From Escherichia phage vB_EcoM_EP32a, in the sequence record OR544954: DNA of 64,000 nucleotides. One strand, given 5' to 3'. This document shows, in pieces, positions 2,512 to 50,745 of this stretch. Position numbers and translations under genes: made by a program. Positions within the stretch are counted from its first letter, which is position 1; each line of letters starts with the position of its first letter. Under the pieces are notes generated by a model that was not told where the DNA came from, did not search any database, and worked only from the letters and a program-made list of their open reading frames with translations.

Positions 2512-2925
2512 ATGAAGCTGGAAGATTTACAGGAAGAGTTAGACGCGGACTTAGCTATTGATATGACAAAGTTGCAATATGAGACGGCGAATAATGTTAA
2601 GTTATACAGCAAATGGCTACGTAAGCACTCATTTATTCGTAAAGAAATGTTGCGTATAGAGACTCAGAAGAAAACTGCTCTAAAAGCAAGATTAGACTAC
2701 TACTCGGGACGAGGTGACGGTGATGAATTCAGTATGGACCGATACGAGAAATCTGAAATGAAAACTGTCCTGGCTGCAGATAAAGATGTGCTTAAAATAG
2801 AGACTACTTTACAATACTGGGGAATTTTACTTGAGTTCTGTAGTGGTGCACTTGACGCAGTTAAGTCTCGTAGTTTTGCACTTAAACATATCCAGGATAT
2901 GCGAGAATTTGAAGCGGGGCAATAA
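2512..2925 (+). CDS. uvsY: recombination mediator UvsY
   Basis: 137 aa ORF (MKLEDLQEELDADLAIDM...), T4 UvsY length and sequence. Confidence 0.9.
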   Translation: MKLEDLQEELDADLAIDMTKLQYETANNVKLYSKWLRKHSFIRKEMLRIETQKKTALKARLDYYSGRGDGDEFSMDRYEKSEMKTVLAADKDVLKIETTLQYWGILLEFCSGALDAVKSRSFALKHIQDMREFEAGQ

Positions 2926-3149
2926 TGCGTTATTCAATTGAAGATGCCTTTAATAATGACGAAGAATTTGAAACTGAAATTAAATTCTTAATGGAAAAGT
3001 ATCGTCTACGTCGTCAGGATATTCGTATTCTGGCAGACCACCCTTGTGGTGAAGACGTCCTTTATATTAAAGGGAAGTTTGCCGGGTATCTTGATGAATA
3101 TTTTTATTCTAAAGATATGGGCATTGATATGCATATGCGAATTGTATAA
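2925..3149 (+). CDS. small protein downstream of uvsY (uvsY.-1-like)
   Basis: 74 aa ORF whose ATG overlaps the uvsY stop (ATGA-type overlap); position as T4 uvsY.-1. Confidence 0.6.
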   Translation: MRYSIEDAFNNDEEFETEIKFLMEKYRLRRQDIRILADHPCGEDVLYIKGKFAGYLDEYFYSKDMGIDMHMRIV

Positions 3150-3181
3150 ATAGATATGTAATTTCAACTTAGGAGGCAATC

Positions 3182-3349
3182 ATGTCAGATAAGATTTGTG
3201 TTGTCTGTAAAACTCCAATCGATTCTGCATTGGTTGTTGAAACAGACAAAGGTCCAGCACATCCTGGTCCTTGTTATAATTATATCCAACAAATGCCGGT
3301 TTCAGAAAGTTCAGAAGAGCAATTGAACGAAACCCAACTTTTACTATAG
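3182..3349 (+). CDS. small Cys-containing protein (uvsY.-2-like), 55 aa, absent from the ORF track
   Basis: ATG at 3182 preceded by aggagg RBS; translation MSDKICVVCKTPIDS...; the antisense 68 aa ORF 3180-3386 is probably its shadow. Confidence 0.55.
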   Translation: MSDKICVVCKTPIDSALVVETDKGPAHPGPCYNYIQQMPVSESSEEQLNETQLLL

Positions 3350-3375
3350 TGTTACCTTTTTTGCCTATGGTTTTT

Positions 3376-3408
3376 GGCCCTTCCAAAAAGGTCGGGCCTT
3401 TTTTTTAA
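3376..3408. terminator. bidirectional intrinsic terminator between uvsY.-2 (+) and uvsW.1 (-)
   Basis: GC stem ggccc...gggcc flanked by a T-run on the plus strand and an A-run (T-run on minus) upstream. Confidence 0.55.
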
Positions 3409-3639
3409 TTAGAAGTCTTCTTCCTCATCCTCATCATCGCCTTCAAGTTCGGCACGCTTACCTGCTAAGGCATCCCTGACAGAAATATCATCTGTATCTT
3501 TTAATTCCGTTTCTTTTATACGTTTCTTATAATAAGCTTCCAATTCTTCAAGCCCTTCTAAGGTATGACAACTAGCAATTTTACCCATGAATTCGTCAAT
3601 AGATGCTTCGTATAAAAATTGTTTAAATTCAAGTACCAT
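3409..3639 (-). CDS. UvsW.1 small acidic protein
   Basis: 76 aa ORF with acidic C-terminus immediately downstream of uvsW, as T4 uvsW.1. Confidence 0.7.
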   Translation of the reverse strand: MVLEFKQFLYEASIDEFMGKIASCHTLEGLEELEAYYKKRIKETELKDTDDISVRDALAGKRAELEGDDEDEEEDF

Positions 3640-3664
3640 TTTTATCTCCTAAGGGCCGAAGCCC

Positions 3665-5179
3665 TTATAAATTAATTGTTTTCATTACATAGTTAAATTT
3701 CTCATCAGCGTAACGTTGGATACGATCAATACCGTGTTTTAACAAGTAATTAAGATGAGTATACTTCTTTTTAGTATTTAATGATTTAGGTTTTACGCCT
3801 GCATCGTCGATGAGATCCCAAACTGTAGCAACAGCTTTAGAACCATGCTTGCGAAGCACACGACCTACGGTTTGAAGTACGATAATTTTTGATTTAACAC
3901 CATGAGCAAAAATAACATGATGAAGATTCTTGACTGAAATACCAGTAGAGAATACTCCATATGATGCGACAATAATAATGCCTTTACCATTTTCTGCCAT
4001 GACTTTAAGCGCGTTACGTGTTTCAGTATCAACTTCACCTGATACGTAATAAACTTTTTCGTATCCAAGCTCTTTAATAGCTTCAAATATTTCTTTACCG
4101 TGTGTAACGTGTTTAAACATTACAAAGGCGTTCTCGTCTTTCTTAGCCAATTTGACTGAAAGTTGAGCAATCCACTTTGTACGTCGTTTTAGTCCGGTAA
4201 TAATTTTAACTTCTTCTTGGTATGTTTTACCTTTTAATTTGGTGGCGAATTCGTCTGGATAACGAAGGAAAATACTATTAATCTTAAGCTCAGTTACCTG
4301 TCCATCTTCCATTAATTTAGACGTGCTAACAGGACGGAAGATTTCGCCGAACATACCTACGTACTGCATTACATTGGCTTTTCCGTCTCTTAATGAGCCA
4401 GATAAACCGAATTTAAACATACAATTATTTAATCCAGAGATGATTGAAGAAATACTTTTGCCTGTTGCTAAGTGGCATTCATCGTTCATCATCATACCGA
4501 ACTGAGAGAACCATTCTTTAGGCTGCTTAACTACTGTTTGCCATGTGCCAACAATAATTGGAGCGTCGTTTTTAGATTTGTCTGCTTTATCAGCACCACC
4601 GCCAATTTTCTTAATCATCGAATGACTAAACAAGCGATAATCAACAAAATCATTAGCCATCTGGGTTGTCAATGCTGTTGTAGGGACGATAATGAGAATT
4701 TTACCTTCATAGTTCTCTAGATAATATCGAGCTAAAAGTGCTTGGATTAGTGATTTACCTGCTGATGTCGGAAGGTTTAAAATTCGACGACGATTAACTA
4801 GTCCTTCATATACTGCATCTTTTTGATACCAATGTGGTTCGATTTTGGCGTTGCCGGAATAAATTTCTTGTTTAGAAAGCCATGCGTCAAAATCTTCCCT
4901 GGTAAGGTCTTCGGTCTCAAAGATTTTAGGGTCAATCCATACAGAATAACTCATATTGTTACAGAACTTTTTTATTTGTCCTACAAGTCCATATGGTAAC
5001 AAACGGTTGTAATCTAAAAGTCGAATTCTACCATCCCATTGCCCATAGCGATATTTTGGGTTAAATTTATACCCGTCAGCTTCAAAGCTAAAAAAGTCAC
5101 GAAGTTCGTAAAACGTACTTTCGTCGCATTCAATGCGCACGTGACTAAAATCATAAAAATGTACTTTAATGTCAGTCAT
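3665..5179 (-). CDS. uvsW: UvsW DNA/RNA helicase (SF2)
   Basis: 504 aa ORF; Walker A-like LPTSAGKS and DEAH-like MMNDECH motifs; position between inh and uvsY as in T4. Confidence 0.85.
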   Translation of the reverse strand: MTDIKVHFYDFSHVRIECDESTFYELRDFFSFEADGYKFNPKYRYGQWDGRIRLLDYNRLLPYGLVGQIKKFCNNMSYSVWIDPKIFETEDLTREDFDAWLSKQEIYSGNAKIEPHWYQKDAVYEGLVNRRRILNLPTSAGKSLIQALLARYYLENYEGKILIIVPTTALTTQMANDFVDYRLFSHSMIKKIGGGADKADKSKNDAPIIVGTWQTVVKQPKEWFSQFGMMMNDECHLATGKSISSIISGLNNCMFKFGLSGSLRDGKANVMQYVGMFGEIFRPVSTSKLMEDGQVTELKINSIFLRYPDEFATKLKGKTYQEEVKIITGLKRRTKWIAQLSVKLAKKDENAFVMFKHVTHGKEIFEAIKELGYEKVYYVSGEVDTETRNALKVMAENGKGIIIVASYGVFSTGISVKNLHHVIFAHGVKSKIIVLQTVGRVLRKHGSKAVATVWDLIDDAGVKPKSLNTKKKYTHLNYLLKHGIDRIQRYADEKFNYVMKTINL

Positions 5180-5208
5180 GTCAAATTACCATGTAATAAA
5201 TATAGTTA

Positions 5209-5216
5209 TATTTATA
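5209..5216 (-). promoter_or_regulatory. late promoter motif (TATAAATA on minus strand) upstream of uvsW
   Basis: tatttata on plus strand about 30 nt upstream of the uvsW ATG. Confidence 0.45.
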
Positions 5217-5229
5217 ATGAGGAAATATC

Positions 5230-5898
5230 ATGATCGATAAAGACTATATTGAAGAGTTACGTGCTCTTTCTGATAAAAAGGAAGCCAAAGCTAAACTGTT
5301 TGAATATGCGGAACAATTTGGCATTAGTGTTAAGAAAACAAAATCATTCGATAATATTGTTATTGATATCGAAGAAGCTCTTAACGCACTGGCTGATGAA
5401 CCATTACCTGAAACTGATGGATTATCTATCACCGATTTAATTACTGCCGCAGATGATGTAGACGGTGTTAATTTCACCAACGAAGAAGTTAAAGAAGAAG
5501 CTATTCTGTTGTTTGATTCTCCAACAGAACAAGTTGAAGTATTGGAAGTTGTCGAACAAGAAAAAGAATTCGACCACGTTAAATTCGAAGAAGCAATTAC
5601 TCAGATTGTTGAATCTGAAAAAGAGCCTGAGCCAGAGGTAAATAAAGAAGTAAAATTTGTTCTGCCTGAAAATTTTAGTCCTACACTCATTAAATTAGGC
5701 AAAGGCCCAGGATATGTTACTGTTCCTTGGTGGATTTATCAATGGATAGCCGAAACCCCAGATTGGAAATCCCGCCCGACTAGTTTTGTACATGCTTCTG
5801 CTCACCAAACATTATTTAGCTTAATTTATTATATTAATCGCGACGGATCAGTTCTAATTCGTGAAACTCGTAATTCTTCTTTCGTAACATTAAAATAA
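5230..5898 (+). CDS. inh: Inh, inhibitor of prohead protease gp21
   Basis: 222 aa ORF directly upstream of hoc, as in T4. Confidence 0.7.
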   Translation: MIDKDYIEELRALSDKKEAKAKLFEYAEQFGISVKKTKSFDNIVIDIEEALNALADEPLPETDGLSITDLITAADDVDGVNFTNEEVKEEAILLFDSPTEQVEVLEVVEQEKEFDHVKFEEAITQIVESEKEPEPEVNKEVKFVLPENFSPTLIKLGKGPGYVTVPWWIYQWIAETPDWKSRPTSFVHASAHQTLFSLIYYINRDGSVLIRETRNSSFVTLK

Positions 5899-46717: not shown

Positions 46718-47320
46718 ATGCGAAACCAAAATAATGATATTGACTCAATGTTCGAAGAGTTCCGAAATAAGGTAAATCCACCTACGTCTTTAGTTGATTC
46801 ATTACGATATGTTGCAACTGGACGTAAATGGTACTGGTCGTCTTCTTATGAGACTACTGAGAAAACGGCCAGCCATAGCAGAAAATCTTTATTAGCCCCA
46901 GGTATTATGATTCATGATATCGGAGCTATTGCTAAACTAGTTGCAGACCATGATATTAGATTCACTGATTTCGTTGCTCCTACGTGGTCTGTTTGTTGTT
47001 TAAACACTGAATGGGAATATATCAGCGAACGCTCTAAAGATTATTATGGTTTTAGAGACAAGCTTTTAAGGTCTAACATGTTTTATATTGATACAGAAGT
47101 TCTGGTCAATAATAAAAAATACTACTTCACTTTAATCATCGATTCTGAAACTATGTATGAAGGCAAGCCTTTGCTTAAGAGAGTTGATGCTTTAAGTGCT
47201 ATTGATGCGCTTTATGAAACTATGGTTGTTAGTCCTAATTTCACTAACAATTTAATCCTTGAGCAATTTATTATGGAATGTAGAGAATATGTCAAAGCCA
47301 ACCCTATACATGCCAAGTAA
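46718..47320 (+). CDS. hypothetical protein
   Basis: ORF track starts at 46697; RBS aaggag plus Met at 46718 (same taaaggagttaacATG context as gene 26). Confidence 0.6.
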   Translation: MRNQNNDIDSMFEEFRNKVNPPTSLVDSLRYVATGRKWYWSSSYETTEKTASHSRKSLLAPGIMIHDIGAIAKLVADHDIRFTDFVAPTWSVCCLNTEWEYISERSKDYYGFRDKLLRSNMFYIDTEVLVNNKKYYFTLIIDSETMYEGKPLLKRVDALSAIDALYETMVVSPNFTNNLILEQFIMECREYVKANPIHAK

Positions 47321-47684
47321 GCCCTGGGCGTATGAATACAAGCGTAAATTAATCCCAAATGAAGTACTATTTGGCCCTATTTTAGCTTTAGCATTTTTAA
47401 TCTTTATGATTATAGGAGCTGTTTTAGATTCTAGTGAAGTTATATCGTCTGATGCAGCATTTTCATTAATGTTCGTCGCACCACTTATTGTACCGTTTTT
47501 ATTAATGCCTATTAATTGGGTAGGATATTGGCACCAAGGCCGTCATCACAGAGCCCGATTAAGAGAATGGAAAGTTCAGTGCGCAAAAGCCCAAGCTCAG
47601 TATGATGAAGCTGTTAAAAAGTATGAATATGAAGAAGCTATGGAATTCGTTAAGGAAATAAGATGCAAAAGCCTCAACTCTTAA
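47289..47684 (+). CDS. small membrane protein, C-terminal EFVKEIRCK family member
   Basis: Start ambiguous (Met at 47289 or 47310); two predicted TM helices; C-terminal motif shared with 47663, 50440 and 51347 ORFs. Confidence 0.55.
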   Translation: MSKPTLYMPSKPWAYEYKRKLIPNEVLFGPILALAFLIFMIIGAVLDSSEVISSDAAFSLMFVAPLIVPFLLMPINWVGYWHQGRHHRARLREWKVQCAKAQAQYDEAVKKYEYEEAMEFVKEIRCKSLNS

Positions 47685-48022
47685 CCGTATGGCCTTCTCT
47701 TGGTGAGAACATTCTAATTTTTATTATGAGTATTGGCATGGGATTTGCCTTTGGATTAGTTGGATTTCTTATTGACGGCGTTGTGTTAGGATTTATAGGG
47801 AACACTGGTGGATTCACAGACCAATGGCAGGACTTACGGTACACCCAAGCCTTTGCATCCATCGCATCATTTTGTACTGTAGTCTATTTTTACTACGATT
47901 TTATAAACCACAACAAGAAAAATAAAAAGGTTTACGCTTCTCAAATGATTAGTTATAATGAACTCCTAGCTAGACGTGAAAATGAAACAATCGAAAACTT
48001 TATTAAGGAATGTAGAAAATGA
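47663..48022 (+). CDS. small membrane protein, C-terminal ENFIKECRK family member
   Basis: 119 aa, RBS aagga; TM helices; C-terminus ...ETIENFIKECRK. Confidence 0.6.
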   Translation: MQKPQLLTVWPSLGENILIFIMSIGMGFAFGLVGFLIDGVVLGFIGNTGGFTDQWQDLRYTQAFASIASFCTVVYFYYDFINHNKKNKKVYASQMISYNELLARRENETIENFIKECRK

Positions 48023-48324
48023 GTAAGATTATTGAAATTAAAGTACCAGAGTTTAATGATGCCAAATCCGCTTCAGATGCAATTTATAAACTTCTGAATC
48101 AAGCTGAACGTATCGAAGAAGAAGCAACAAAGATCGCAGACCAATATGCCGTATCATTTTCTGTAGGTGATTATGGTAGCGGTCGTACTTATTATCCTAA
48201 GGGTGAAATCGTATCCCAGTGGATGAAAGATGAAATTGAAAATAATGGCGGCGATGTTAAGCGTGAAGGTAATGGATACGTTATTACTGAAGGTGCTTGG
48301 GTTTCGTCTTCTGCGTTGTGCTAA
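48019..48324 (+). CDS. hypothetical protein, tandem paralog 1 (C-terminal GAWVSSSALC)
   Basis: 101 aa; shares a GxGxTYxxPG-like middle motif and the C-terminal GWV[SA]SSxxC motif with the next two ORFs. Confidence 0.6.
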   Translation: MSKIIEIKVPEFNDAKSASDAIYKLLNQAERIEEEATKIADQYAVSFSVGDYGSGRTYYPKGEIVSQWMKDEIENNGGDVKREGNGYVITEGAWVSSSALC

Positions 48325-48333
48325 GGAATCATT

Positions 48334-48606
48334 ATGTCTAAAGAACAAACCGAACTGGCTGAAGCTGTAGCAAAAATCTATGCAGCTATTGAGGCTGCCA
48401 AAGAAATTGCTGATAAACAAAACACAACATTCAACTTGTACCCAGCTTATGGTATGGGTGGAACCTATCATTCACCCGGACATCTTAAAGCCGATCTTGA
48501 ACGTTGTACAAAAAACGGCTATGCTGAATGGGCTGACGTTTACCAATACGACTACAACCTGAGCCTCGAAACTGGTGGTTGGGTCGCATCTTCTCACACT
48601 TGCTAA
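48334..48606 (+). CDS. hypothetical protein, tandem paralog 2 (C-terminal GGWVASSHTC)
   Basis: 90 aa; RBS ctaaggaa; same family. Confidence 0.6.
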   Translation: MSKEQTELAEAVAKIYAAIEAAKEIADKQNTTFNLYPAYGMGGTYHSPGHLKADLERCTKNGYAEWADVYQYDYNLSLETGGWVASSHTC

Positions 48607-48615
48607 GGAAACAAT

Positions 48616-48813
48616 ATGTCTCGTGAATTAGATTGTGCTGTACGTACGGCAGTAGCTGCTCTGGAAAACCTGTTCCAAATTGCAACAGAAGAACGCGAAG
48701 AAGTTACATTATGGATTGAAGATAACGCAGGTCTGAATCTCCAGGACGCGATCTCATTATCCCACAATAGTATCACTGTTCAAGGCTGGGTATCATCTAG
48801 TTATTCTTGCTAA
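48616..48813 (+). CDS. hypothetical protein, tandem paralog 3 (C-terminal QGWVSSSYSC)
   Basis: 65 aa; RBS ctaaggaa; same family, shortest member. Confidence 0.55.
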   Translation: MSRELDCAVRTAVAALENLFQIATEEREEVTLWIEDNAGLNLQDAISLSHNSITVQGWVSSSYSC

Positions 48814-48817
48814 AACA

Positions 48818-48875
48818 GTTTACAACAAGATAGGGCTATGTTATAGTAGTCCTATCAAAACAAATGGAGTCCACA
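48818..48875 (+). promoter_or_regulatory. PeSL-like early promoter cassette
   Basis: GTTTACA, spacer, TATAGT; inverted repeat gatagggcta/tagtcctatc (one mismatch); leader caaaacaaatggag. Confidence 0.65.
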
Positions 48876-49115
48876 ATGATTTATTACGAAAGTATCGGAA
48901 CCAAAGTGGTTGGCAAAACCATTACTCGTGAAAAGTTTGCAAAGATATTCGATATGCGTTATAAAAAATCTGAACACAAAGGCATCCGATTCGAAGATGC
49001 GCACTGTACAATTTGCCCTTATAATGAAGACATAAACGGTACAATCGTTCCATTGGTAGAAGCTTCACATGATGACCTCTGGGATGAATATAATATCGCA
49101 TGTCGTGAAATTTAA
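48876..49115 (+). CDS. hypothetical protein
   Basis: ORF track starts at 48864; Met at 48876 after the conserved leader; about 79 aa. Confidence 0.55.
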   Translation: MIYYESIGTKVVGKTITREKFAKIFDMRYKKSEHKGIRFEDAHCTICPYNEDINGTIVPLVEASHDDLWDEYNIACREI

Positions 49116-49143
49116 GTTAATGAATTAATCCGAGGAAAATATT

Positions 49144-50100
49144 ATGATGTTAGTTATTGGTTCTCGTGCACTTCACTATCACGGTCTTATTGATTCTAGC
49201 GCTATCAAAAATAGTGATTGGGACTTTATTGCGGACCAAGGTTCTTGGAATGCATTCAAAAATCAAATGATGGGTGTATATGTCCACCAAGATAACCCTG
49301 ATGTCCAAGTTTTCAAATGCTTCCATAATGGTCGCGAAACTCATTTTGAAGCATATATTGTTCCGGCAATCACTAATGTCCGTGAATTAGTCGGTGAACT
49401 CACTCCTGAAGATTTCACATCTTCTTATGACCTTTTAAAATACGCCAAGAAAAATTTGACTAAAGACCGTTTGAACGGGTTTTACTGGGCAACTCCTGAG
49501 ATATGTCTTGCAATTAAGATGTCTCATCGTTTCAAGAAAAATAATCCATTCTTTTTAAAGACTATGAACCATATTCAGTATCTTCGTGGTAAAGGTGTTA
49601 CACTGAACGATGAACTTACTGAAATTATGCTGAAACGCCAAAAAGAAACTTTGAACTATGCTCACCCTGTTCTTGACACTTCTAAAAGTGCGTTCTTTAA
49701 AGATGACATCTATACATATGACCATGATACTATTCACGAAGCCATTGCACTAACAGACCGTCCGGCTTATATGTTTTACATGAAAGATGGTTCTGAAGTC
49801 ATGACCTCACGCGAGAAGTTCGAATCATTACCGGAAATGGTCAAATTGGCCGGTGTATATGAAGAATCATGTGTACTAGCATTAGAACGTTCTCAGATTC
49901 CTAACGACTTTAAAATCCATCCACGTGATAGTTTTATGATGGCCCTTGAAAAGGTCTGTACATCAATCACATCAGGATGGTTCCGTGAGTTCGCTTGGGA
50001 AAATTATAGCAAAGTAGTAAGTATGTACCAAAGCTTAGGACACGACGATTACGTCAAGCGTTTCAAACAAAACTTTCATATGGTAAAACCTTTCAAATAA
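49144..50100 (+). CDS. hypothetical 318 aa protein, possible nucleotidyltransferase-like N-terminus
   Basis: RBS gaggaaaa; N-terminal IGSRALHYHGL...SDWDF loosely resembles the GS-x(n)-DxD pattern of Pol-beta-superfamily nucleotidyltransferases (spacing longer than canonical). Confidence 0.5.
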   Translation: MMLVIGSRALHYHGLIDSSAIKNSDWDFIADQGSWNAFKNQMMGVYVHQDNPDVQVFKCFHNGRETHFEAYIVPAITNVRELVGELTPEDFTSSYDLLKYAKKNLTKDRLNGFYWATPEICLAIKMSHRFKKNNPFFLKTMNHIQYLRGKGVTLNDELTEIMLKRQKETLNYAHPVLDTSKSAFFKDDIYTYDHDTIHEAIALTDRPAYMFYMKDGSEVMTSREKFESLPEMVKLAGVYEESCVLALERSQIPNDFKIHPRDSFMMALEKVCTSITSGWFREFAWENYSKVVSMYQSLGHDDYVKRFKQNFHMVKPFK

Positions 50101-50112
50101 TTTCACAAAACA

Positions 50113-50180
50113 GTTTACAAGGTCTGTAGTTGTTGATACTATAGACCTATCAAAACAAATGAGTGAATGGAGATATAAAA
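50113..50180 (+). promoter_or_regulatory. PeSL-like early promoter cassette
   Basis: GTTTACA, spacer, TACTAT; inverted repeat ggtctgtag/ctatagacc; leader caaaacaaatgagtgaatggagatataaaaATG. Confidence 0.65.
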
Positions 50181-50381
50181 ATGACTACTTTGAATAAACG
50201 TTTCGGTAAAGCTAAACCTGGTTGTGCAGCAGAACGTCGTTATGTTTTCGCTCAGTTAGAAGATGTAGAGTATCAGATTAATCAAGTTCACATTACTGGT
50301 ATCGAGCCTATGTGTGGCCTTGAAGCTCTTCGTGAAGTTCGTGATGGGTATCGTCGTGACATCGAAGAAATGTCAAAATAA
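50181..50381 (+). CDS. hypothetical small protein
   Basis: ORF track starts at 50163; Met at 50181 after the conserved leader; 66 aa. Confidence 0.55.
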   Translation: MTTLNKRFGKAKPGCAAERRYVFAQLEDVEYQINQVHITGIEPMCGLEALREVRDGYRRDIEEMSK

Positions 50382-50382
50382 G

Positions 50383-50439
50383 TGTACAAACTGATAGGAC
50401 TATGTTATAGTAGTCCTATTAAAACATGAGGAGAATATT
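50383..50439 (+). promoter_or_regulatory. PeSL-like early promoter cassette
   Basis: GTGTACA, spacer, TATAGT; 9-bp inverted repeat ataggacta/tagtcctat as in the 42869 copy; RBS gaggag. Confidence 0.65.
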
Positions 50440-50745
50440 ATGAAATTAGGCGAAACCAACCGAATTGGTCTTTTAACAATATTTGTATCACTTTTTTACG
50501 CAGCTCTTTCTGTTGCAGTATTACAAAAGGCTTACAGTATGGATGGTGTTCCTGGTTGTATATTTTTATCACCATTTTTGCTATTCGTTGGAGCTTTGTT
50601 ATTATATGCCACGTCTGGTTTCGACAATAATGTCTGGGTCAATTATAAACGTAAATTGTCTGAAGAAGAACACGCAGAAGCTCGTAAAAAAGCTATTGAA
50701 TCTACCAATCTAGAAAATTTCATTAAAGAATGTCGAGGAAAATAA
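50440..50745 (+). CDS. small membrane protein, C-terminal ENFIKECRGK family member
   Basis: 101 aa; two TM helices; C-terminus ...STNLENFIKECRGK. Confidence 0.6.
   Translation: MKLGETNRIGLLTIFVSLFYAALSVAVLQKAYSMDGVPGCIFLSPFLLFVGALLLYATSGFDNNVWVNYKRKLSEEEHAEARKKAIESTNLENFIKECRGK

Follow-up and report, generated by a model that had tools for sequence, protein, structure and literature searches.

A 64,000-nucleotide stretch of Escherichia phage vB_EcoM_EP32a (record OR544954), referred to below as the window, carries three consecutive small open reading frames (ORF1 to ORF3; Table 1) that each end in a nearly identical, cysteine-containing tail. These ORFs are functional, anciently diverged paralogues, and small genes tagged in this way form a conserved two-part phage module with the gene for a DUF7277/DUF7275 protein, a predicted nucleotidyltransferase (NTase). 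Conserved linkage to this downstream NTase-fold gene is the main feature of the locus, and it was overlooked in an earlier note on the same DNA. The coordinates of the three ORFs, their lengths of 101, 90 and 65 amino acids (aa) and their C-termini (GAWVSSSALC, GGWVASSHTC and QGWVSSSYSC) were given correctly there, as were the middle motifs VGDYGSGRTYYPKG and PAYGMGGTYHSPGH, which we found in ORF1 and ORF2, ORF3 having none.

Linkage of tagged small genes to a nucleotidyltransferase gene

For the linkage analysis, NTases were clustered at 60% identity into 20 lineages, and a tagged ORF was counted when it lay within 4 kb on the same strand. At least one such ORF stands beside the NTase gene in 16 of the 20 lineages, often at a distance of only 16-100 nucleotides (nt). 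Across viral loci, metagenomic loci and those from metagenome-assembled genomes (MAGs), one to six tagged ORFs adjoin the DUF7275 gene on the same strand. The linkage extends to Aeromonas phages 31 and CC2, Klebsiella phage FKP3, Pseudomonas phages PspYZU05 and VCM, Acinetobacter phage Berthold and four of five MAG contigs, as well as to a distant jumbo-phage contig of about 370 kb, in which two tagged ORFs precede the DUF7275 gene. Loci that were fetched with a DNA pattern back-translated from YGMGGTYY have the same layout wherever the downstream DNA suffices, with tagged ORFs preceding the DUF7275 gene; in Stenotrophomonas phage Ps15 the order is reversed, the tagged ORFs following the NTase. 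The four exceptional lineages are a Gordonia phage (C-terminal domain only), roseophage DSS3_PM1, Pseudoalteromonas phage H101, in which a borderline ORF ending in ...EWYESRC lies upstream of the NTase, and one MAG.

When the neighbouring genes were clustered, the Cys-ended families were the only gene families found to travel with the NTase. The pair also changes its genomic context jointly, from e.3/e.2 here to nrdD in Aeromonas phage 31, rnlA in CC2 and other settings in non-Straboviridae phages. Some 185,000 species genomes yielded only five loci, all of them on MAG contigs, which argues that the module is essentially confined to phages.

With respect to wider surroundings, DUF7275 genes repeatedly have tRNA clusters or genes for RNA repair (encoding RNA ligase 1 or 2, polynucleotide kinase-phosphatase or metallophosphoesterase) a few kb away, as in the jumbo-phage contig (L003), CC2 (L034), DSS3_PM1 (L044), Gordonia phage Aphelion (L043) and JK36 (L001); such neighbours hint at an RNA or tRNA-end substrate for the NTase. 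In the jumbo-phage contig (L003, positions 105-1220 and 2689-5478) a Gad2-family (anti-Gabija) gene and a pair encoding RNA ligase 1 (Rnl1) and polynucleotide kinase-phosphatase (PNKP) are found within a few kb of the module, and this region may be a counter-defence island.

The small-protein family and its tail

An exhaustive HMMER profile search of 1.84 billion representatives, with the family counted at 50% identity, returned 566 family representatives at E <= 1e-3 and 53 at E <= 1e-10, and nearly all of the matches extend to the final residue of the protein. Tail statistics were taken from the best 150 profile hits, which comprise 146 newly listed representatives. The consensus is W-x-[SAP]-S-[ST]-x-x-C, in which W(-7) and S(-4) are each present in 136 of 136 sequences and S/T(-3) in 135 of 136. 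The earlier suggestion of an invariant Cys at or next to the C-terminus holds in near-invariant form among these distant representatives: Cys is the last residue in 136 of the 146 and the penultimate one in 9 more, mostly as ...SST.EC[NSR]. As an independent check, all genes near the NTase were clustered with BLAST. The main cluster ends in Cys in 33 of 35 members, and three further clusters that the profile had not detected are Cys-ended throughout (7/7, 4/4 and 3/3).

The strict form of the tail, W.[SAP]S[ST]..C followed by a stop codon, closes exactly 3 of the 500 window ORFs of at least 30 aa, namely ORF1 to ORF3. The corresponding background is 0 of the 497 other window ORFs and 0 of about 1,280 ORFs in T4, and 100 shuffled windows contained none. 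Among 64 distinct tails the invariant Ser uses all six of its codons, the Cys codon is TGC in some and TGT in others, each of the three stop codons is represented and conservation does not continue into the downstream DNA, which argues that the tail is selected at the protein level; a nucleotide-level cause, such as a coupling signal, is ruled out by the same codon diversity.

The small proteins are acidic (median isoelectric point 4.5, median charge -8). An AlphaFold2 (AF2) model of ORF1 (pLDDT 88.4, pTM 0.73) places a long helix, residues 15-43, on a small sheet in which W-V-S of the tail forms a strand; this agrees with the N-terminal helix that the earlier note had seen as common to the small proteins. 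As modelled, the small protein would be a folded domain and not a disordered peptide, and the modelled fold had no match in the PDB.

The tail is also portable. The same arrays hold the ORF3 type, which shares only helix and tail, together with types of 69 aa, 140-151 aa and 72-81 aa, and these tail-sharing bodies have nothing else detectable in common. The 72-81-aa "double-motif" type carries an internal DW.SSSCYGE(G/D) and a terminal W..SSC (L032, 3928-4152; L033, 3786-4004; L036, 3709-3954; L035, 3149-3373). Its internal Cys is fused straight to the YG-Gly motif, an arrangement that resembles a circular permutation of the main type. Such internal copies, along with the variants that have one residue after the Cys, indicate that a free Cys carboxylate is not essential. 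Taken together, these proteins make up a superfamily that is restricted to phages; its members are acidic, folded and small (about 50-150 aa), and its defining feature is a portable tail, usually at the protein end.

Searches of Pfam, NCBIfam and PADLOC with the small proteins gave sub-threshold noise only, and as such we dismissed Peptidase_S78_2 (0.007), E217_Gp32 (0.01) and PDC-S49 (0.01). The PDB sequence and profile matches were designed helical proteins and AcrIIC4, all at E > 1, and were set aside as an effect of helix composition. No likeness in sequence or fold was found to MenA1/MazE-like proteins, AbiEi or any antitoxin family, and a BFVD search returned uncharacterised homologues only. 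A packaging signal like that of the T4 internal proteins was rejected, since conservation is found at the C-terminus and not in the N-termini. The window proteins are clear members of PHROG 899, PHROG 4882, PHROG 2141 and DUF7277/DUF7275, all annotated "unknown function", with entries that mention neither the tail, nor the NTase nature, nor the linkage; a literature search of a paper library on the DUF names, the ORF names, phrog_899 and phage NTases with C-terminal cysteines found nothing relevant.

A scan of the whole T4 genome found no NTase homologue and no tagged ORF. T4 Tk.1 (62 aa; L052, 11346-11534) has a marginal likeness to the core of the small proteins (...LSFEISSEYGDAETYY...; hidden Markov model (HMM) E 8e-4, hhalign probability 41%) and lacks a W..SS..C tail; it may be a tail-less remnant or a chance match.

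Age and divergence of the three copies

The homology of the three ORFs, as the earlier note had it, was borne out by pairwise BLASTP (E 2e-4 for ORF1/2, 1e-3 for ORF1/3 and 3e-4 for ORF2/3), with aligned lengths of 54, 37 and 23 aa, respectively. Judged from these alignments, their mutual similarity is weak yet non-random and reaches past the last 10 residues; chance likeness confined to those residues, which had been named as the finding that would count against homology, does not describe the alignments.

The same note had taken the three genes for a tandem triplication with a decaying third copy. A local triplication of one small gene, with its third copy degenerating, would fit the adjacency of the ORFs, their conserved 9-nt junctions, the 48-nt junction repeat at 75% identity and the missing middle motif of ORF3, but we regard it as scarcely credible. 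Among themselves the window copies share only about 30% identity (E 1e-2 to 1e-5), whereas the best matches of each copy are its positional orthologues in Dhakavirus and Karamvirus/Klebsiella-type phages (E 1e-21 to 1e-41). ORF1 is 63% identical to the 96-aa protein of phage JS98, ORF2 51-57% identical to proteins of 91-93 aa, and ORF3 54-63% identical to proteins of 65 aa. That each copy is nearer to orthologues in other genera (50-63%) than to its paralogues in the window argues against a local, recent event. The ORF3 type, moreover, is found intact over all of its 65 aa (100% coverage) in 251 phage records with identities as low as 42%, and is thus not decaying. It has a second conserved Cys of its own, at position 7 in MSRELDCA.

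Family assignments follow the same division: ORF1 (1.3e-22) and ORF2 (5e-19) belong to phrog_899, as do the 69-aa and 74-aa types of JS98, and ORF3 (7.7e-37) to phrog_4882. A profile built without ORF3 recovers just its last 14 residues (hhalign E 2e-4; HMM E 0.047). Relatives, in addition, hold up to five or six array members, a further point against triplication. JS98 has five consecutive Cys-ended ORFs (96, 93, 65, 69 and 74 aa); the count is likewise five in a Klebsiella-type contig and at least five in Klebsiella phage FKP3. Given these larger arrays in relatives, the three genes of the window are an old array in reduced form.

A frameshift divides the ORF1 orthologue of the RB69 reference genome (AY303349; L055, 2501-2807) into ORF139c and ORF138c, and in its tail, GAWVSSPALC, a Ser is changed to Pro. 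This is either a laboratory-strain pseudogene or a sequencing error, and it suggests that ORF1 is dispensable in the laboratory.

The partner protein

The 318-aa protein encoded downstream matches DUF7277 and DUF7275 in Pfam at 264.8 and 97.1 bits, well above the gathering cut-off of 27. In an alignment of 47 homologues that are 47-74% identical to the window protein, G6, S7, D25, D27 and E69 are invariant and make up a GS...DxD...E signature. The Pol-beta pattern hG[GS]-x(n)-[DE]h[DE]h with a third carboxylate on a later strand is therefore present, the third carboxylate presumably being E69, and the strand order in the AF2 model is consistent with it. K125, H128, K139, R165, H174, H194, D195, H198, C243, C272 and other residues are also invariant. 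Those of the helical lobe include K125/H128/R129/K139 and D193/D195, which are candidates for counterparts of MenT K137/D152. In the MenT enzymes, C-terminal motifs III and IV supply a catalytic Lys (K137) and Asp (D152) (PMC7450476).

The AF2 model of the NTase (pLDDT 92.6, pTM 0.87) has two lobes and is similar in fold to solved MenT structures, its closest PDB entries being MenT1, MenT3/TglT and MenT4, and also ANT(2''). Sequence and profile searches of the PDB gave nothing, and the AbiEii/DUF1814 Pfam model matched neither the window protein (E <= 0.1) nor any of the 47 homologues (E <= 1), so that the relationship to MenT/AbiEii is one of fold only. On the strength of the motif and the model, the DUF7277/DUF7275 protein is apparently an active-looking Pol-beta-fold NTase of the MenT/AbiEii/ANT structural type. 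It is also abundant, with 2,105 clusters at 90% identity and occurrences in 733 sequenced phages, among them therapeutic-type coliphages and phages of Klebsiella, Acinetobacter, Pseudomonas and Aeromonas. The homologue in Klebsiella phage VAC36 is named "prohead assembly scaffold protein" (P0176), a name that looks unsupported.

Layout and transcription of the locus

The window belongs to an RB69-like, T4-type Mosigvirus. Over positions 47600-49200 its identity to Shigella phage JK36, and to numerous further Mosigvirus phages, is 99.9%. ORF1 to ORF3 are flanked in annotated relatives by e.3 on one side and, on the other, by a block with e.2, nudE and e at its end. The synteny comparison with T4 and RB genomes that had been proposed found counterparts in RB69 (ORF139c/138c, 137c and 136c, followed by ORF135c and then ORF134c) and no array in T4, where e.2 abuts e.3 and the whole block is absent.

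Table 1. Positions of the array, its tails and associated features in the window
Feature	Position	Strand	Description
ORF1	48019..48324	+	101 aa; YGSGRTYYP type; orthologue of RB69ORF139c+138c; phrog_899 1e-22; AF2 pLDDT 88.4
ORF2	48334..48606	+	90 aa; YGMGGTY type; orthologue of RB69ORF137c; phrog_899 5e-19
ORF3	48616..48813	+	65 aa; short paralogue with helix and tail, without Gly-rich loop; orthologue of RB69ORF136c; phrog_4882 8e-37
ORF1 tail W-V-S-S-S-A-L-C	48298..48321	+	
ORF2 tail W-V-A-S-S-H-T-C	48580..48603	+	
ORF3 tail W-V-S-S-S-Y-S-C	48787..48810	+	
318-aa DUF7277+DUF7275 protein, phrog_2141, RB69ORF134c	49144..50100	+	Predicted Pol-beta-fold NTase; conserved partner of the small proteins
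79-aa ORF, RB69ORF135c homologue, phrog_3723	48876..49115	+	Between array and NTase gene
Promoter-like site GCTT...TATAAT inside e.3	47931..47959	+	Same site annotated as T4-type middle promoter in phage SA79RD
PeSL-like cassette	48812..48866	+	Early-promoter-like GTTTACA-N17-TATAGT overlapping a stable hairpin (-16 kcal/mol, z -4.0); divides array from next transcription unit

The junction TGCTAAGGAA-N5-ATGTCT is common to ORF2 and ORF3; its two occurrences make up a 48-nt repeat with 75% identity. The identical ctaaggaa-ATG start context that had been reported for all three genes applies to ORF2 and ORF3 ('tgctaaggaa', 5 nt and ATG) and not to ORF1, which has 'ttaaggaa' with a longer spacer and whose ATG overlaps the stop codon of e.3 (ATGA). 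The promoter-like site inside e.3 is likely to be the promoter of the ORF1 to ORF3 unit.

Downstream of the array lies a cassette that occurs in three copies (the one in Table 1, 50107-50161 and 50376-50430) and brackets small gene units. It consists of AAAACAGTTTACAA, then a hairpin GATAGG(G/A)CTAT-GTTATA-GTAGTCCTAT, then AAAACA. T4-type phages have mobile regulatory cassettes that combine an intergenic early promoter with a stem-loop (PeSL) in their hyperplastic regions (PMC2839356; PMC4122927), and their early promoter consensus is TTTACW-N17-TAYWAT (PMC4122927). The cassette resembles these and may be related to them: it is a repeated intergenic unit with an early-promoter-like sequence and a hairpin, its -10 hexamer is off at one position and its hairpin overlaps the promoter. 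With this cassette and the 79-aa ORF lying in between, the array and the NTase gene of this phage may be separate transcription units.

The 79-aa ORF is kept only in close relatives and its C-terminal residue is not Cys; it is probably not a core part of the module. It ends in DLWDEYNIACREI, where the spacing from W to C is 7 residues, as in the tail, with no Ser-Ser and with three additional residues, and this ending is either a very degenerate relative of the tail or a coincidence.

A motif of about 22 nt, TTTATTA(A/T)GGAATGTAGA(A/G)AAT, was observed at 47267-47288, 47999-48020 and 50718-50735, near the 3' ends of three genes (an e.5-like ORF, e.3 and the ORF at 50440-50745), where it encodes FI(K/M)ECR; the copy in e.3 also holds the ORF1 start codon, ATG, together with its Shine-Dalgarno sequence. 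Either a common peptide motif or a signal for translational coupling could account for the recurrence. We considered e.3-like paralogues on either side of the module as evidence for a cassette and rejected them, the similarity being limited to 13 C-terminal residues (ENFIKECR). The e.4 homologue (window 47310-47684; L001, 3711-4085) is called "sulfurtransferase" in the records of JK36, JK42, JK45, F27 and F31 and has no Pfam match at E <= 0.1; as a label for the array that name was discarded, as it belongs to the e.4 homologue and lacks Pfam support.

Discussion

Our overall reading joins the ancient paralogues, the tailed superfamily and the NTase module in a system whose enzyme recognises the tail, with the tail favoured as covalent acceptor; we hold it with evenly divided confidence. 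We infer that the tail is the element recognised by the NTase, and the physical interaction, the entry into the active site and the covalent modification are inferred along with it. The Trp would anchor the tail, the hydroxyls of the invariant Ser-Ser(/Thr) and the thiol of the Cys would be offered to the active site, and a Ser hydroxyl or the Cys thiol would be the true acceptor and become nucleotidylylated, one enzyme servicing a variable set of tagged small proteins. This acceptor model is favoured because the tail is the sole element common to very different bodies, because its invariant residues are nucleophiles and because a single enzyme serves one to six partners. In its most specific form, a phage-specific, tag-directed protein modification system in which a MenT-like NTase nucleotidylylates or otherwise activates the Ser/Cys of the tag on an evolving array of small effectors, the proposal is a tentative one, and we think it considerably less likely to be right than wrong.

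Several points weigh against this interpretation. Adjacency of genes does not prove interaction, and the array may be transcribed apart from the NTase gene, given the intervening promoter/hairpin cassette and 79-aa ORF. The tail statistics are partly circular, as the profile itself contains the tail. In 4 of the 20 lineages, such as the Gordonia phage and DSS3_PM1, the NTase has no tagged neighbours and must therefore have a function that is independent of the small proteins. The characterised MenT enzymes act on tRNA 3' ends and not on proteins (PMC7450476, PMC10435456). Finally, W-V-S of the tail is a beta-strand of the AF2 fold, so that the invariant residues could be structural or could form a site of the small protein itself.

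The main rival is a pseudo-substrate inhibitor model patterned on MenA1, in which a MenT-like tRNA 3'-end NTase acts on host or phage tRNA and the small proteins are non-covalent inhibitors or timers whose tail plugs the active site. MenT1 is neutralised by just such a short, upstream-encoded active-site blocker (PMC7450476; PMC10435456), the gene order matches that seen here, and the nearest structures are the MenT1/3/4 toxins. RNA-related genes are at hand as well: tRNA genes clustered some 4-5 kb upstream in phages of this type, a tRNA array near the NTase in Gordonia phage Aphelion, RNA ligase 1 with polynucleotide kinase in the jumbo-phage contig, rnlA in CC2 and RNA ligase 2 in DSS3_PM1. 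An NTase that is sometimes alone is expected if the regulators are accessory, and separate promoter cassettes would permit differential timing. Nonetheless, a single inhibitor would suffice, whereas the arrays hold two to six strongly diverged members that are each kept across genera, and a steric plug does not need invariant nucleophiles (Ser, Ser/Thr and Cys). The small proteins, moreover, have no sequence similarity to MenA1/MazE or any antitoxin family, and the NTase does not match the DUF1814/AbiEii Pfam model. We therefore consider inhibition of this kind unlikely, if well worth keeping in view.

The strand position of the tail within the modelled sheet lends itself to another explanation, which we rate as distinctly improbable, namely that Trp stacking, Ser-Ser, the YG.GG.TYY loop and the Cys thiol form a ligand or metal pocket of the small protein's own, as in a nucleotide or signal sponge or carrier, with the NTase making, using or destroying the same nucleotide ligand. 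The internal copy of the double-motif type, DW.SSSC-YGE(G), in which the Cys is joined to the YG-Gly motif, suggests that the C-terminus and the YG.G loop of the main type are spatial neighbours, and nucleotide binders typically combine a Gly-rich loop with invariant aromatics, here Y52, Y58, W68 and W94. In their small size and acidity the proteins also resemble several known sponge proteins of phages. That the proteins are instead precursors akin to ribosomally synthesized and post-translationally modified peptides (RiPPs) seems to us very improbable. Here the Ser-x-x-Cys terminus would become a thioether ring, of lanthionine or aminovinyl-cysteine (AviCys) type, perhaps after nucleotidylylation of the Ser. 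The S/T at -3 from the terminal Cys in the main type has the spacing found in AviCys-forming peptides such as epidermin, and several diversified "precursors" do adjoin one enzyme. These are, however, folded domains of 65-150 aa and not leader-plus-core peptides, and no dehydratase, cyclase or HFCD/LanD-type decarboxylase is conserved in the neighbourhood. The spacing also varies, other types ending in W-x-x-S-S-C, and the nine representatives with a residue past the Cys, together with the internal motifs, do not require a free Cys carboxylate.

A large, uncharacterised family with linkage to an NTase points to an unstudied two-part phage system, both components of which are abundant yet annotated only as "hypothetical" or by a DUF number. 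Its genes are early/middle genes in a hyperplastic region, the usual home of host-takeover and anti-defence functions, and an invariant Ser-Ser...Cys tail on otherwise unrelated bodies is unusual. As the nearest structural relatives are bacterial abortive-infection and toxin-antitoxin toxins (AbiEii, MenT), a phage version with dedicated partners could be a counter-defence device, a tRNA-directed takeover device or a new protein-tagging chemistry. Tag-directed modification, if true, would be a new form of post-translational tagging and would give the MenT/AbiEii structural class its first activity directed at proteins; it would probably serve host takeover or counter-defence.

In terms of known systems, the closest likeness is to MenA1-MenT1 and the wider MenAT/AbiE group, which share with the present module a small gene adjoining, and usually upstream of, a gene for a bi-lobed Pol-beta-fold NTase on the same strand. 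MenT1, MenT3/TglT and MenT4 are the best PDB matches of the NTase model, and the GS...DxD...E catalytic signature is present here. MenT toxins add nucleotides to tRNA 3' ends, and MenA1, a 68-aa protein encoded just upstream, blocks MenT1 (PMC7450476; PMC10435456). ANT(2'')-Ia and LnuA differ in that their substrates are small-molecule antibiotics and no partner protein is involved, and the NTase here has no sequence similarity to them. The MNT-HEPN system (MntA-HepT) differs in other respects: its NTase is minimal and single-domain, compared with 318 aa and two lobes here, and its partner is a HEPN RNase that is modified on Tyr. HEPN motifs are lacking here, and MNT-HEPN is not known to carry a C-terminal tag. 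Nonetheless, in MNT-HEPN the minimal NTase AMPylates a partner encoded next to it, which provides a precedent for a Pol-beta-fold NTase that nucleotidylylates a hydroxyl side chain of its small cognate protein.

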